Below are positions 11,842 to 55,862 of a stretch of DNA of 64,000 nt, one piece after another. Position 1 is the stretch's first letter. Every line of letters starts with the position of its first letter. The stretch comes from Euglena gracilis (lineage: Eukaryota), in contig CP154954.1 of assembly GCA_039621445.1 (NCBI GenBank), positions 15,333,805 to 15,397,804 of the forward strand, read 5' to 3'. Position numbers and translations under genes: made by a program. The notes under the pieces were generated by a model that did no database searches, was not told where the DNA came from, and worked only from the letters and a program-made list of their open reading frames with translations.

Positions 11842-12109
11842 AAACGTCTCTTTTGGCCCTCGCCACAAGAGGAACCCCCTTGTGACTCCCTGTGCCGCCA
11901 CAGGTCGCGGGTACATTATACTGTGGGTGTAATGTACAAAGGAGCTACTGAGTGATACTTGTTGTGGAGGTCAGTGGTTAGCGGAAGATGAGCAAAGGTC
12001 ACCTTCAATATACATTGGGCGGGGAGGGGGGCGTTTGTACCGCTTTTGCCACAGGATGGCGTGTTTGTGTCGGGTTTTGGCTTTTGTTGTGTTTTGCTTC
12101 TCTGTGCGT
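11842..12109 (-). repeat. Left inverted-repeat arm (antisense copy of the element's 3' terminus)
   Basis: AAACGTCTCTTTTGGCCCTCG...TTTGCTTCTCTG. By eye it differs from the right arm by one 3-nt indel and about four substitutions. Confidence 0.92.
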
Positions 12110-12206
12110 TTTGGTCTGGACGGACGGACGACTAGGTTGGTCTCAAAATCGCGAGAGAGAACTTATTCCTAATCACTGTGGCTTTTCTGCTGCTGTTGGC
12201 TGTATT

Positions 12207-12960
12207 GGGCCTGAAAAGGCCCCCTCAACACCGCCACTGGCCTGAAAAGGCCCTGGGCCTGAAAAGGCCCCCCCTGCTACAGGGCCTGAAAAGGCCCCTT
12301 CAGCCACTGGGCCTGAAAAGGCCCCCCCAGTTTTTGGGCCTGCAAAGGCCCCCCCAGTCTTTGGGCCTGCAAAGGCCCCCCCCTTTGGGCCTGCAAAGGC
12401 CCCCCATCTGCCAACCATTAAGTGGAACTTTCAACTCCAGTGTCTTCTTTTCGGTGTTCTGCATTGCATCCCAAACTTCTGATCAATTGAAGTGGCAAAC
12501 CCAGTTTTCACAGCACATGTTACACCAAAAGCTCTGACACATTTTGCTGCAGTTTTGACTTGACATTGAAAAACATTTTGCCACCCCAACCCCTCAGTGA
12601 CACTTTTTGCAGCAGTTTTGACTTGACATTGAAAAACATTTTGCCACCCCAACCCCTCAGTGACACCGTTTTACCCCAGTGTCCTGCAAAGTCACTGGGC
12701 TTGCAAAGGCCCCCCTGTGACACCACTTCGGTCTATTGCACCATTTTGACCCAGTGGCCTGCAAAGGCCCTGGGCCTGCAAAGGCCCCCCTCCAACACCA
12801 TTTTGCTCCAGTGGCCTGCAAAGGCCCTGGGCCTGCAAAGGCCCCCCTGTGACACCTTTTTGTCGTGTTGCAGCATTTTGTCCCAGTGGCCTGCAAAGGC
12901 CATGGGCCTGCAAAGGCCCCCCCCCTGACACCATTTTTGCTCTCAGCCTGAAAAGCCCCC
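12207..12960 (+). repeat. Array of GGGCCT-GMAA-AGGCCC hairpin units
   Basis: About 15 intact units (e.g. 12207, 12255, 12282, 12309, 12336, 12363, 12387, 12697, 12772, 12829, 12904) plus degenerate ones. A ~63-bp tandem duplication lies at ~12535-12666. Confidence 0.9.
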
Positions 12961-13049
12961 GACAAACTGGCAAACCATGTTCCTCCACATTTTGGACTGC
13001 AACAGTGGCCCCCCAGCCAGACAGCACATCCACTTTTTGGTCTGCAACA

Positions 13050-16000
13050 ATGGCCCCCCAGCCAGCCAGTTCTGCCGGATTCTACTGGCCTGCAACCTTC
13101 CCACCTCAGCAAAATAAACCGGACAACCCCCAGGTTCCGTCTCCGCTGACCGGAAGAAACCACCCAACGTCGGCCAAACAAATAAAAGTGCTGGTGCCAT
13201 ACGTTTCTGCGAAAGACAGCACACAGCCTACCCTACCACCATCGGGAGGGGCAGGCCGAGGTCGGTCTTTACTGACCTGCGGGGACATTGAGAGTAACCC
13301 CGGGCCTCCTAGAACCCCACCATCTGTTCCGGGTGAAGATTTGACATGGCGCCAGCATCACAAACCTCAACCACTCCTACTGCACCGCCGCCCGCAGAGC
13401 ACCCATCGGTGTCGGGTGAGGACGTTGACATGGCGCCATTGGAAAGGGGATCTTGGTTCCCAAATCTGCCGGGTCCATTGTTCTTTGGCCAACAAGGCCT
13501 CCCCTCAATGTGCTCCACGGTCATCATGGAGAACCCAATTGGCACACAAGGACCAGGACCCTTCCCCCCGTCAGATGTTGGGGCCATTTGGATGCAAGCA
13601 AATCAGGCGACGCCCTTCCTGAACTTCTCCAACCTCCCTTTGGGTGCCAGCTCTTCATCCTCAGTGGCAACAACCGCAGCAGCATCGTCACTAGCCCTCG
13701 CGGGACCCCCACCAACCTCGGTGGCAACAACCGCAGCAGCATCGTCACCAGCCCCAGCCAGACCCCCACCAACCCCCATTGGCCAAAATCACATTGCCGG
13801 GGTTACGCCATTCTCTGCTCCATGCCCACCCTCCCTTCATCCCACTTTTGAGGAAATTTCTTTTGATGATCGGGGCACCCTTGTATACCTGCCGCGTGGA
13901 GCCCTCCTGAATGTCAATCAAACCTACCTGCAATTGTTGAGGCATTTCAACAGGGAACCTGGCTGGGAAACCCTGCACGCCTTGTGGGCCTTCCCCAAAG
14001 CGGTGCTCTGTCCTTTGCAGCGTGGCGGGCGATCGAACTGGGCGATGTTGGGGAGAAAAATTGCAGAACGAGCTCGCCTGTATCTCACCCGTCCTGTGTT
14101 TGATTCTTGGTTGGACTCCAGTCTCCCACAAAAGCAACAAGGCAGACAGACAAGGCAAAAAACATCACTCGCTGCCAAGGCCACTGAAGAACGGTTCCTT
14201 TCCCGCATTGAAAGCCTTGTTGCCCACGGGGCCATTTCAAAAGCCTGCCGAGAGCTCACCTCTGAGGGGGTTCAGAACAGCAATGACCCAAAAGTGATTC
14301 AAAGGCTGTGTGACCTTCACCCACCAGAGCCTCCACCGCGCATCCCGGTGTCCGACCCTTCCCAAACGATCACCTTTCCTTCGGACCCAGAAAGCACAAA
14401 AGAACGATTGCAAAATTTGCGCAAAGCCATATTCGGGTTCCCAAAGGAATCCGCACCGGGTCCCTCTGGCCTGAGACCTGACCACCTCAAGGAGGGGCTT
14501 GTGGAGATGACCTCCTCGAAGGGCTTGATACCTTCATCTGTCGGGCAATTACAAACGGTGTTCACCCCGGCATGGCCCCAATTCTTTCCTCAGCCAGGTT
14601 GACACCTCTGCGAAAACAGAACAAACAAACAGCAATGGAAGAGGATGCTTTTGGAAACCTTGTGGAGAACACGGTGTGTGATGAAGACACTCGCCCAATC
14701 GCAGCAGGTGAAACCCTTCGCCGATTGGTTGGCAAATGCCTCATGCGTCATCCAACAGTGGTGAACGTTTTGAAAGAACTGAGTCCTCCACAATGTGGCG
14801 TTGGTGTGCCGAATGCTTGTCCACTGATCGCAATGGGAATCTAACAAATGGTGGACACTTTGCACTCAGACAGAGACAATCGCTGGGGGCTGCTTCAAGT
14901 GGATTTCAGGAATGCCTTCAACTCTTTGTCACGGGAAAAAATCCTGCAATCCATCCGTAGACAATGCCCAGAAGTGTGCCCTTGGCTGGATTCGTGCTAC
15001 GCCCAACACAGCAAGCTGTATTGTGGAAACCATTGTCTGCCTTCCCAGAGGGGGGCTCAGCAAGGCGACCCATGTGGACCAGCAGCTTTCGCCTGGGGAG
15101 TGCAAGACCTTTGTGAGGGCCTCTCACCGTTGGTCGAATGGCAGGGATGGTACTTGGATGACGCCCATCTGCTGGGATCGCCAGCCCAACTGCACAATGC
15201 CCTTGCCTTCCTGATTCGCGAGGCAGCCACGCTTGGGTTGGCCGTAAACCCTGCAAAATGTCGATTGTGGGGACCAGCGTTCACATCAACAGAAGGCATC
15301 CCTTGCATTCCCCCTGGCACGCCACACGACAGCCCCTTACATCAAATACCACTGACCGCCTTTGTTGCTGGTTCTGGTTTGAAAGTTTTGGGGGTCCCTG
15401 TCCACCACCTCCAAGATGACCGCTTCTGTGACGAAGTTTGGAATAAGCGCATTGCAGACATCCGACGTTCTTGCACAGTACTTCAGCACCTACCTCAATC
15501 GCATGTGCAATTCACCTTGCTTCGTTTTTGTTTATCTGCTTGCAAAGTGAATGACCTCTTGCGCGCCTGCAAAATCACCTCTGCAACAGCGGCATGCAAG
15601 ACATTGTCGGGAATTATTCGGGAAACATTCAGTGGCATGGTCGGCTCCCCTTGCACTCCAGAAGAATGGTTGCAAGTTTCCCTGGCCATCAGATGCGGTG
15701 GACTGGGGATCTCGGATCCACTATTTCAACGTGTGCCAGCTAGATTGTCTCAAGTGGTGGACTTCTGTCGAAGAGCTCCCTCTGTCTTGGGCCTGCCCGC
15801 TGCCTTGGACATCCTTCCCAAAGACACTGATGATTGTTTACGGACAGCCCTCAATGAACTTGGTCAAATAGCCCCACTGCCACAATGGGCCACTGACAAA
15901 AATTTGATCCCTCAGGCACAGTCTCCACACAATTCACAACGTTGGTGGAATCAGCAGAGCATGCTTGCCCGCCAGAAAACACTTCGGGACACATTGAATG

Positions 16001-16770
16001 GACCTGATGCTGTACGCTTTGCAAGCCAATGCCAACCACACGCTATGGCATGGGCCGCTTTGACACCATCTCAAGGACTCCGCACCCTGTTGCCCACGGC
16101 TGAATTCCGCTGCACACTTCGTTGGTCCCTTGGAATGACTCTCACACCAATGGAATCCGATCCCAACCTCTGTCCCAAATGCTTTGGACAATCAGATTTT
16201 CTCGGACACCACCTCGTTTGCTGCAAATCAAACTTCATCACCCGGCGGCACGGGGCGGTACAAGATTTTCTGACAACCACAACACAGAAGGCAGGATTCA
16301 CAGCCCGTAAAGAACAACGAGCTGATGACCGTTCCCGGCCTGGGGATATCTTCATTCCTCGCTTGGACAGTGATGGACCCGTTGCAGTGGATGTGACAAT
16401 CCGCCACACCCTTGCGCAAAGTCATCCGCTGCGAAGTGCAGAGAGCCTTTCACAATGGCAAACACGTCAGGAGGCTGAAAAGCATGCCAAATATGATGCA
16501 ACATGCCAACGACTGGGCTGGCGGTTGACGCCATTCGTCATGGATTGCTATGGGGGCATGGGACAAGAAGCGCGCTCCTTAATGGCCACCCTCCTCAAGG
16601 CCCTTCTGGGGCAGCGGGAAGGGTGGCAGCGGCGGGCCGCAGAAGCAGACATTTGGCAAGGCCTGTCCTTCACACTTATCAGAGAAATCAGCACACAGCT
16701 CGTTTGGAGCTTGTATTCTTCCAAAGATGAGATCACCCTGTCTTCTGCCCACTCACCCTATTCTGTCTGA
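13050..16770 (+). pseudogene. Retroelement polyprotein: leader - 2A - Pro/Thr-rich spacer - RT - CCHC knuckle - restriction-like endonuclease; 2 frameshifts (~13340, ~14495) and in-frame TAA (14842-14844)
   Basis: Motifs FPKESAPGPSGLRPDHLKE, RPIAAGETLRRLVGK, QCGVG, LQVDFRNAFNSLSR, GAQQGDPCGP, WYLDD, GLKVLGVP, LAIRCGGLGI, CPKC..HLVCC, RRHGAV, RPGDI..AVDVTI, EAEKHAKY and PFVMDCYGGMG occur in the order typical of CRE/SLACS-like elements. ATG 13050 is the candidate start. Confidence 0.9.
13254..13307 (+). other. 2A-like (StopGo) ribosomal skipping peptide GRGRSLLTCGDIESNPG|P
   Basis: Exact D(V/I)ExNPGP consensus, with upstream context close to T2A (EGRGSLLTCGDVEENPGP). Confidence 0.9.
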
Positions 16771-16910
16771 AGGCCTTTGAGCACAAACTCTCAACCAAAT
16801 AACCAACCTTGAAATCTCACCTGCCAAGTTTTTAACCCGTAGTTACCCCCTGAGCTGAGCAGAGCCACACGCCGAGCCAAAGACAAATCCATGGGTCACA
16901 TATCACATAC

Positions 16911-17351
16911 ACACGCAGAGAAGCAAACCACAACAAAAGCCAAAACCCGACACAAACACGCCATCCTGTGGCAAAAGCGGTACAAACGCCCCCCTCCCCG
17001 CCCAATACCATGCCCCCCCCCATATTGTACCCCCCCCCTGGGAGCCATTTTCTGGGGGGGAGGTACATTATGGGGGGGGGTACAATATGGGGGGCGGCCA
17101 AGGTCATGGTCCATGGTGGGGGGGTACCCCGTGGGGGGGGGTACATTATGGGGGGGGGTACAATATGGGGGGGGGGCATGGTATATATTGAAGGTGACCT
17201 TTGCTCATCTTCCGCTAACCACTGACCTCCACAACAAGTATCACTCAGCTCCTTTGTACATTACACCCACAGTATAATGTACCCGCGACCTGTGGCGGCA
17301 CAGGGAGTCACAAGGGGGTTCCTCTTGTGGCGAGGGCCAAAAGAGACGTTT
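16911..17351 (+). repeat. Right inverted-repeat arm / 3' UTR, interrupted by a MITE
   Basis: CAGAGAAGCAAA...CGAGGGCCAAAAGAGACGTTT; reverse complement of the left arm. Confidence 0.92.
17008..17181. mobile_element. TA-flanked MITE (CCATGCCC...GGGCATGG) inserted in the right arm
   Basis: ~30-bp TIRs and TA on both sides; the equivalent empty site is visible in the left arm. Confidence 0.9.
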
Positions 17352-19565
17352 CCCTGGGCCCGGGGCACGGTTTGGGTGAAGCTGTGCTACCCGCCGTGAA
17401 GGTGTCTATTTTTATTTTTATCGCTTTTCTGCTTGTTTTTTTCCCCGACATGTCACATGGCTGAGACCCCTGGCGGGGTTCGTTACAAGCTGGGATTATC
17501 AAGTACAAGTTGTCAAGTTTCAAGTTCAAGTACAACTTATTAGTCCAAGTACTAGAAGCTTTGGTAGGCGCGTGATGGGCCAAACGGATGGAAAAGGCCC
17601 TGTCTCTTCCTCGCCCGTGGATCGATGGCCCGTGCTGACGCACGGGCCGGATGGCCCTATCCGAGGGCTACATTTATAATCCAGCCCCGTCCCCCAGTTC
17701 CAAAAATGTGCATTTTTGTTGGCTGATTTGTTGGCTGGGCTTGGCCGGCCAATTCCCTTGCTTAATTCAATATTGCTTCAACAGCATCCCTCTGAGATAT
17801 GTACCCCCCCCCCCGTAGCTGAGCGCGGCGGCGCGTGCTCACGCACGAGCCTTGTGTGTTGCCGCAAAAATATCAAGCAGCGCAGCTCCACAAAATTCCA
17901 AGGAAATGGGGCGGCGGGGCAGAAAGGGCTCGTGGAACCAAAAAGAGCCCTTTTTTTGAAATTGCTGCCCTCGAAAAACCCTTGCCAGAGCGCGCTAGAG
18001 GGCCTCCAAACCACACCCATTCAGAGATATGCCACCCCCCCTTCGAGAAGTGGCACGGGCCAACATTCGTTGGCAAGCGGCCTTTTTTCCCTGAAAAAAA
18101 CGCGAAATCTGACCCGAGCACGTCCTGGCACACGGGCCGGAGAGCCCTTGCCGAGGGCTGCATTTACCTCCAAAGCGCGAGCTCCCTGGTGCAATTGGGT
18201 CATTGGGGATTAACTCCCTTTTCCTGATCATATCATGCACACCCATTGCGAGATATGAATCCCCCCTTGTGGCTTGGAGGATGGGAAGCACGGTACCACA
18301 TCACCAGAAAATGCCTTTTGAAGGACTCGCCCACCCAAAACGGAGTTTATTTTTGGACGCCACCCTTGAAAACCCCTTCCGGAGCACATCATGGCACCCC
18401 CAAAGCGCACACATTCCAAAGTACGCGTCACCCGGATCACGAAGCACGGTGCCAAAACACCAGAAAATTCAGCAGTGCCGTCTGAGGAATGCACAGGGTC
18501 GGCAAGCCCAAACGGACGGAATTGGAATCACCGCCCTTGAAAACACCGTGCCAGAGCACGTCAGGGCACCCCCACAGCACACACACTGCAAGGTGTGGCT
18601 CCCCCGTCTGGCTTGGAGGACGGGAGGATGGTGCCGCACCAACAAAAAATTCGCTGCTGCCGCTTGAGGGCTACAGAGGGTCGGCCCCTCAAAACGAAGC
18701 TTTTGGAATCACCGCCACTGAAAACCCCCTCACGGTGCACATTGGGGCACTCCCACGGCATTGACTTGCTGGTTCGGTAGCGGGGTGCCGTGGCGCTGAA
18801 AAATTCACCGCTGCCGTTTGAGGGTTCTAGAGGTCGGCCAACCAAAACGGAGCATATTTTTGGCATCGCCACCCTCAAAAACCCCCCGTCCGAGCAAATA
18901 AAAGCGTACAGCCATACAAGCTGAAGACGCTACAGGCGAATTCTGATGAACAAGTGAAGGACAAGGAAGGCAGGTAAAAAAAAAAACGTTTTGTAACTGC
19001 TGCATTGCAATTTTTTGTAACAAAGCGCCTGTTTTTTTTCTGCTACATTGTTGTGTTTTGCAAATGTGTCTCTCAAATTTCCTGTGTGTGAACCATCTGA
19101 AAAGATTTTGCACCAGTGGCCTGAAAAGGCCCTGGGCCAGCAAAGACCATTTTGCAACGAATTGTTTTTTTGACCGGGAATTTGTTCTGGTGATGCGGTG
19201 TATAATTTGGGAAGGATCTGAATGAGGCGTGTGTGTGGTGGGCATTTGTGTGTGGTTTTGTGCTGTGGTTTGTGTGGAGAGGTGGTTGCCAATTTTCCAC
19301 TCGACTTATTTTCCACCACTGGTCAGTTTGGGGCTGTCACAGGTGACCCAATTTGGTGACGGGGGGGGGGGCTGATAGGTGGTGGCCAGTTTGGTGCCAG
19401 GATGTTTGGCCAGTTTGGTGCCACAGGGCCCGGTAAACGCCAGTCAACCCAGGAAAAAGGGTCCAGCGATGGAACATTTTTCGATGTTTGGAGGCTTTTT
19501 TTTGCACAAAGAAATGCGGGAATGAAAAAGTCAAAAACAGTTTCTATTTTTTCTGCCGCGTCTGT

Positions 19566-29573: not shown

Positions 29574-55862
<26,289 letters not shown>

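Follow-up and report, generated by a model that had tools for sequence, protein, structure and literature searches.

Does a 2A (StopGo) peptide separate the products of a non-LTR (long terminal repeat) retrotransposon of the restriction-like endonuclease (RLE) type? The question is raised by a 64,000-base stretch of Euglena gracilis DNA (contig CP154954.1; "the window" below means this whole stretch). An element at about 12105-16915 in the window is a non-LTR retrotransposon with a reverse transcriptase (RT) and C-terminal CCHC and restriction-like endonuclease domains, and near the start of its coding region lies a 2A-like motif. We put the probability at about 0.7 that the motif is a genuine 2A of one lineage of RLE elements, that an intact element would use it to make a short leader and an RT-RLE protein starting with Pro, that longer relatives would use it up to three times, and that the copy in the window is dead.

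A canonical 2A motif at the head of the element

The predicted peptide (Table 1) ends in DIESNPGP (13284-13307), which fits the C-terminal 2A consensus D(V/I)ExNPG↓P. It is encoded in frame 0, in which 12750-13622 has no stop codon. Counting from the first in-frame ATG, at 13050, the Gly and Pro of the motif are codons 85 and 86. In a six-frame scan of the window, D[VI]ExNPGP occurred only once; the sole additional NPGP, without the rest of the motif, is at 49679 on the minus strand. From the six-frame residue frequencies of the window itself, 0.0002 full motifs and 3.5 bare NPGP are predicted. That is, the single full motif is no chance match. Based on its residues, we assign the motif at 13254-13307 as a 2A/StopGo peptide of canonical type. 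An initial annotation had placed a 2A-like motif at the head of this element; the motif is there, canonical, and unique in the window. Within 13254-13307 there was no near-fixed difference from other genomic contigs among the differences listed; positions 13247 and 13312 do differ.

The peptide is very similar to 2A1 of Providence virus (...GGRGSLLTCGDVESNPGP), from which it differs in having an additional Arg and Ile in place of Val. The tract upstream of the core, GRGRSLLTCG (GGRGSLLTCG in the virus), appears suitable for a 2A as judged only by this likeness. Providence virus 2A1 has an activity of 0.99 (PMC12338488, supplement file 1, row 11), and the -DIEQNPGP- of L1Tc, which has Ile at the same place, has been termed canonical (Odon 2013, PMC3708506). 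Given the likeness to the viral peptide and the Ile in L1Tc, the peptide is expected to be active in an intact copy. The viral peptide, although nearly the same, is part of an RNA virus polyprotein and not of a retroelement. The 13-residue core of the peptide in the window is listed once in PMC12338488, from a metagenomic protein.

The element is of the RLE type

We used Pfam to look for domains in the three open reading frame (ORF) pieces of the element. RVT_1 matched residues 8-141 of the 640-aa piece (E 1.7e-10). No AP endonuclease (APE) was found in the three pieces at E<=0.1; the 190-aa and 418-aa pieces had no family and the 640-aa piece had RVT_1 only. Pfam scans of 23 relatives likewise reported no APE family.

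A family profile was built from 18 members and searched against solved structures. The best solved relatives of the element's RT were R2 and then LINE-1 (long interspersed nuclear element 1) ORF2. R2 chains 9nl3_A and 9dou_A matched with E values of 6e-29 and 1e-28 over profile positions 232-962. The alignment covers the RT, CCHC, RH, PD, DxT and K motifs and reaches the end of the R2 chain (9nl3_A residue 1151). For LINE-1 ORF2 only the RT part aligned (positions 217-574). Searching the PDB with a single sequence gave no match; the relation emerged by profile only and is therefore distant. Based on the match to R2 through the CCHC and RLE domains and the absence of APE by Pfam, we classify the element as an RLE-type non-LTR retrotransposon. 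This agrees with the RLE-type call made initially.

R2 (PDB 9nl3, 9dou, 9nl2, 8gh6) aligns with the family through RT, linker, CCHC and RLE over ~730 profile positions. It differs in having N-terminal zinc-finger/Myb DNA-binding domains and in inserting in 28S ribosomal DNA, and passages of the R2 literature mention no 2A. The CRE clade (CRE1/2, SLACS, CZAR), of which the element is at most a candidate member, also consists of RLE-type elements with a single ORF. A distant relative from a barnacle (P0066) has the automatic name "SLACS protein" and falls outside the 2A clade in the tree described below. Trypanosomatid members of CRE insert in spliced-leader RNA genes. This feature of CRE was not found here: Rfam, at the gathering threshold, gave 0 matches across the window, with no spliced-leader or other RNA gene.

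Relatives have the 2A in frame with RT and RLE

We searched for relatives of the element in two ways. The RT-RLE piece was used in a word-indexed search, which found 234 relatives; we examined the best 120 of them. Among these 120, the closest were ~50% identical and came from metagenome or transcriptome contigs; the nearest named relatives were from sponges, a barnacle, a tardigrade and a plant. At residues 71-88 of P0029 (31% identical), which is among the 120, the sequence is GRGDSLLSCGDVESNPGP, and it shares its frame with RT and RLE. Residues 26-88 of P0029 are 41% identical to the translation of 13089-13307 (tblastn, E 5e-7), a match that includes the 2A core. A phmmer search with the 418-aa piece against 1.84 billion representatives gave 438 matches at E<=0.001, 150 of them being listed. 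In total 271 proteins were re-scored, and 202 of them match the N-terminal domain that precedes the RT.

A 2A was found upstream of the N-terminal domain in 10 of the 14 proteins with at least 200 upstream residues, in 14 of 41 with at least 100, and in 16 of 70 with at least 30. Seventeen sequences, including the window, contained 25 motifs, and GRG was present at the same upstream distance in 19 of the 25. Six further motifs were in P0272 and P0273, bringing the total beyond the window to 30 motifs in 18 relatives. In seven proteins (P0029, P0121, P0145, P0179, P0230, P0272 and P0273), the order 2A, N-terminal domain, RT and CCHC-RLE is uninterrupted. Forms with a short leader, as in the window, recur in the distant members P0029, P0163, P0190 and P0230. 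Some gene calls start inside a 2A-like or decayed motif, at residues 1-12 of P0199 (MTCGDIEANPGW) and residues 1-7 of P0147 and P0183 (MEQNPGP and MERNPGP). These starts show that the N-termini predicted for the family are often truncated at the 2A or inside it.

The distribution of the motif makes it very improbable that it arose by chance or was captured from an unrelated RNA virus. Although the peptide is nearly identical to a tetravirus 2A, 0.0002 full motifs were expected in the window, and 18 relatives have a peptide of this type in the corresponding position, in each case preceding the same N-terminal domain. In addition, Pfam found no viral domain in the ORF pieces.

We made a tree of the RT-RLE region with FastTree. 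It has 75 rows, the window and 74 proteins covering query positions 40-600; 81 of the 155 matching proteins, P0272 among them, were left out as partial. A single clade, which has 26 of the 75 rows and an SH-like support of 99, contains all seven rows with a 2A. The distribution of the 2A label requires 4 changes on the tree, compared to a mean of 6.8 when labels were shuffled, and none of 500 shuffles was as low. These results suggest that the 2A was inherited within one lineage of RLE-type elements. The initial annotation had the 2A heading the RT-RLE ORF. This is so in the seven uninterrupted relatives, where both are in the same frame, but not in the window copy, where the 2A is out of frame.

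Two additional searches for homologues added little. The 418-aa piece, used to look for longer proteins, gave only 3 matches, and residues 1-760 of P0121 gave 3, including the query. In the Protein Atlas, the nearest clusters were of RTs and were sparsely labelled by taxon (Streptophyta, Ctenophora).

Some relatives have several 2A sites and additional upstream modules

Three relatives have three 2A sites each: P0121 (1849 aa), P0272 (2053 aa) and P0273 (1736 aa). All three have the same order: an SLBP-type RNA-binding domain, 2A, a Cys-rich piece, 2A, a Dam-like stretch, 2A, and then the N-terminal domain with RT and RLE. The SLBP-type domain (PF15247) matched P0121, P0272 and P0273 with E values of 2e-13, 4e-20 and 6e-4, the last below the Pfam cutoff. 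The Dam-like stretch contains an NPPF motif and matched PF05869 with E values between 6e-6 and 8e-5; in none of the three did it reach the curated cutoff. Parts of this arrangement are also present in other relatives that are shorter or fragmentary. SLBP and 2A are found together in P0210 and P0153, and Dam-like sequences and 2A in P0145, P0179, P0214 and P0233; P0185 has a weak Dam-like match.

In these relatives, the role of the 2A would be to separate upstream products from the RT protein on one mRNA in one ribosome pass. The subfamily in the window would then be a minimal form in which the upstream product is reduced to a leader. The initial suggestion for the window had been narrower, namely that skipping releases a short leader and gives the RT-RLE protein a defined N-terminal Pro regardless of where translation starts. 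This is possible for an intact copy, but nothing is released in the window copy (below), and the relatives point to the broader role as a separator of cistrons.

The way in which 2A peptides work suggests how an intact element could be expressed. A 2A peptide acts while it is still in the exit tunnel of the ribosome, where it keeps the Gly-Pro bond from forming; the upstream chain is set free, and the ribosome may go on translating from the Pro (Odon 2013, PMC3708506). In an intact copy, translation would begin ~85 codons upstream of the skip site. With the nascent ...GDIESNPG in the exit tunnel, the chain would be released without a Gly-Pro bond, yielding an upstream product that is an 85-residue leader. 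The ribosome would continue from the Pro codon and make a separate RT-RLE protein with an N-terminal Pro. In the longer relatives, up to three skips would give an SLBP-like RNA binder, a middle protein, a Dam-like methyltransferase, and then the RT-RLE protein. Both the skipping and the roles of the released products are predictions from these sequences.

A more general notion is that an old RLE-type LINE lineage uses StopGo throughout. One to three 2A sites would make one ORF into up to four proteins: an SLBP-like binder of RNA hairpins that replaces ORF1p, a cysteine-rich piece, a Dam-like adenine methyltransferase (NPPF), and RT-RLE. The multicopy family in the window would be a stripped-down form that clips off a short leader. 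We regard this notion as tentative, with a chance slightly below even. If it is true, the scheme with several 2A sites amounts to a virus-like polyprotein strategy, which has not yet been described for RLE-only retrotransposons.

The copy in the window is dead

Three lesions have inactivated the copy in the window. Using full-length relatives as queries (tblastn), we found that the protein passes through frame 0 (which has the 2A), frame 2 (13799-14524) and frame 1 (14494-16761). We compared the region from 12000 to 17400 to contigs from two DNA runs (X1 and X3) and two RNA-labelled runs (X15 and X16).

Frames 0 and 2 are separated by a 1-base deletion that falls 11 codons past the Pro of the 2A, in a stretch that is duplicated. 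The 3' halves of the two copies of this stretch are 84 bases apart and the 5' halves are 83 bases apart, so the first duplicate has lost one base between 13338 and 13343. It reads PSVPGED in the frame of the 2A and then slips; the second reads PSVSGEDVDMAP in the downstream (RT) frame. In relatives P0121, P0163, P0190 and P0210, DVD(M/L)A follows the 2A in one frame. Based on these comparisons, we infer that the 1-base deletion at 13338-13343 is a lesion of this copy. The fit of one RNA-labelled contig (X16 record 17) ends at 13340 with 84 letters over, as might be expected of a copy that lacks the 84-base duplication.

The remaining two lesions are private to this copy. At 14492, contigs have loose ends (6 in X1 and 5 in X3) with 19 extra letters, after which the text of the window resumes; the frame change seen with tblastn (14494-14524) is near this 19-base deletion. 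At 14842, all contigs listed (18 of X1, 13 of X3 and 1 of X16; none was listed for X15) have C where the window has T, which makes an in-frame TAA. With these three lesions, nothing is released from the window copy.

We considered the possibility that the 2A lies in an upstream ORF of its own, with a one-base offset throughout the family, and that the RT protein is made from ATG 13346 and is never headed by a 2A. This ATG opens the 418-aa ORF in frame 2 and has G at -3 and +4. The duplicated stretch argues otherwise: the second duplicate has GEDVDMAP in the RT frame, whereas the first has PSVPGED in the 2A frame and then lost one base. Relatives read the 2A and then DVD(M/L)A in one frame. Furthermore, two other lesions are private, so a third private lesion is unsurprising. 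We therefore consider a separate upstream ORF to be quite improbable. Programmed frameshifting that joins the 2A to the RT was also rejected, because 13335-13346 has no slippery heptamer and the remaining lesions are private.

Does the 2A have a function in the subfamily of the window?

The leader has no Pfam family, and there is no trace of SLBP or Dam modules in the window. Its start codon lies in a 45-base tandem unit (12984-13069) that has CAGTGG in the first copy and CAATGG in the second. ATG 13050 is present only in the second copy; that is, the leader starts inside the 5' repeat array.

It is conceivable that the motif was inherited but is idle in this subfamily, either as a relic of a polycistronic ancestor whose other cistrons were lost or as a sequence that mainly lowers output. 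The leader without a domain, the lack of an SLBP or Dam remnant and the dead copy in the window would all be consistent with this, as would the reduced protein abundance caused by 59-70% of the retrotransposon 2A-like peptides assayed (PMC13405545). In contrast, the core is perfectly canonical and a GRG..LL.CGD tract is common to 19 of the 25 family motifs. Short-leader forms have recurred in distant members (P0029, P0163, P0190 and P0230), and no near-fixed change in the motif was found in other genomic contigs among the differences listed. We think it unlikely that the motif is idle, and favor a 2A that would function in intact members of the subfamily.

Several observations weigh against a functional 2A heading the RT-RLE protein. 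In the window copy, the 2A is out of frame with all of the downstream RT ORF pieces. The product that would be released may have no function of its own, since the leader has neither a recognisable domain nor a trace of SLBP or Dam. The motif alone is no guarantee of an active 2A, because the ~10-20 residues upstream are critical (Odon 2013, PMC3708506), and most retrotransposon 2A-like peptides assayed (59-70%) reduced protein abundance instead of giving clean skipping (preprint PMC13405545). In addition, the 2A is absent in 27 of the 41 relatives with at least 100 upstream residues and in 4 of the 14 with at least 200. These absences carry less weight because, on short contigs, a gene call often begins at an internal Met. 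Lastly, the tree was made with FastTree from only 75 rows and came with long-branch warnings, one of them on a row with a 2A (P0145).

2A peptides in other retroelements

Most of the retroelements described with a 2A are APE-type. 2A peptides have been placed in the APE-type clades Rex1, Crack, L2, L2A, CR1 and Ingi (Odon 2013, PMC3708506). L1Tc/ingi of trypanosomes and the animal elements Rex1, L2, CR1 and Crack share the motif D(V/I)ExNPGP with the element in the window. All of these are APE-type, whereas the element in the window has a C-terminal RLE and no APE was found. Another difference is that relatives of the window have up to three 2A sites and other modules upstream.

2A-like peptides have also been described in Dualen/RandI elements of Haematococcus lacustris, in an ORF2p of Symbiodinium necroappetens with an OTU domain, in ORF1p-like proteins, and in a Ty3-like case; most instances of ORF2p with a 2A had an APE domain (PMC13405545). 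Dualen is like the family in the window in that a 2A precedes a non-LTR RT outside of the classic APE clades and an RLE is present. It differs in combining APE with RLE and in having a deubiquitinase and repeat domains as upstream modules. In another preprint, 580 RT contigs have a predicted 2A, and ~79% of these are non-LTR-like (10.64898/2026.09.24.754024). This set may well include the lineage of the window, although the section of the main text that describes it gives neither an endonuclease type nor an architecture with SLBP or Dam.

A full-text search of the literature found no report of a 2A in RLE-only or CRE-type elements or of SLBP or Dam modules in a LINE, and the supplements of PMC13405545 and 10.64898/2026.09.24.754024 may hold such members. 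The view in the initial annotation, that 2A peptides are described in APE-type elements and are not known from CRE/RLE ones, is in keeping with the literature seen, in which they appear only in APE clades, in Dualen/RandI, and in non-LTR-like contigs of no stated type. Thus, 2A recoding in non-LTR retrotransposons is known, and its occurrence in the RLE-only type is likely new.

Gain of a 2A has been linked to loss of ORF1, and RLE groups are among those called most ancient (Odon 2013, PMC3708506). A 2A in an RLE-only lineage would widen the APE-centred picture: either 2A peptides are older in retroelements, or they were gained again independently. In this family the 2A would serve as a true separator of several cistrons. 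The polycistronic relatives would provide a natural test of whether an RNA binder and an RT made in equimolar amounts by the same ribosome serve cis-preference. The family also adds new natural 2A sequences of non-viral origin. For the window alone the outcome is limited to a dead copy of a repeat that is very abundant, and the relatives with several 2A sites are the more interesting lead.

Other features of the element and the window

Table 1. Coordinates of the 2A peptide, the parts and lesions of the element, and its flanking repeats
Feature	Position	Strand	Basis or detail
Left inverted-repeat arm	11842..12104	.	blastn; 98-99% identical to the reverse complement of 16916-17006 + 17184-17351
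5' tandem-repeat region, periods 27, 45, 57, 63, 75, 132	12254..13069	+	Tandem Repeats Finder
Leader, codons 1-68 (MAPQPASS...)	13050..13253	+	no ATG upstream in the open frame
2A/StopGo peptide (assigned) GRGRSLLTCGDIESNPGP	13254..13307	+	frame 0; predicted skip between Gly 13302-13304 and Pro 13305-13307
Duplicated stretch, two copies: PSVPGED.. and PSVSGEDVDMAP	13320..13438	+	three-frame reading
ORF piece, 418 aa, frame 2: low-complexity linker and conserved pre-RT N-terminal domain	13346..14602	+	frame open 13337-14602
19-base deletion, private; shifts frame 2 to frame 1	14492..14493	+	loose contig ends
In-frame TAA, private	14842..14844	+	contig comparison
ORF piece, 640 aa, frame 1: RT, linker, CCHC and RLE domains	14848..16770	+	frame runs 14482-16770 with internal TAA
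CCHC knuckle (CPKC...H....C), RRH, PGD, DVT, lysine stretch = RLE	16171..16500	+	motif match; aligned to R2 chain 9nl3_A
Right inverted-repeat arm	16916..17351	.	split by 17-base tandem array 17053-17175

The family is very abundant in the source organism: 16,851 contigs of X1 fell on a 5.4-kb stretch at >=85% likeness. Summed contig depth in two bins spanning 13086-13447 was ~1/5 to 1/4 of that at 16344-16705, near the 3' end of the ORF. The lower 5' depth would fit copies that are 5'-truncated, depth not being equal to copy number. Contigs of the RNA-labelled runs X15 and X16 also fall on the element, a placement that is no demonstration of transcription.

An inverted repeat of ~263 bases brackets the element, as seen in one copy with flanks (Table 1). 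The repeat may belong to the element, or it may be a palindromic target. Many other copies are without the tandem array that splits the right arm: 7 contigs of X1 and 10 of X3 have a joint from 17005 to 17182.

A metagenome scan with the leader and 2A gave 450 pattern matches, which reduced to 5 loci, none of them of the family in the window. In three of these loci (L001 356-403, L004 1412-1447 and L005 483-521), a 2A is just ahead of a coiled-coil, ORF1p-like protein unrelated to the family. These three resemble the ORF1p cases in PMC13405545. In the other two loci (L002 and L003) the 2A is in other contexts.

Elsewhere in the window, Pfam on 27 other long ORFs reported only a weak C2H2 match and a weak cyclase fragment. 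The latter (44776-45468, plus strand) is a weak match to an adenylate/guanylate cyclase catalytic domain (E 1.3e-4, at the Pfam cutoff) and is the sole hint of a host gene.

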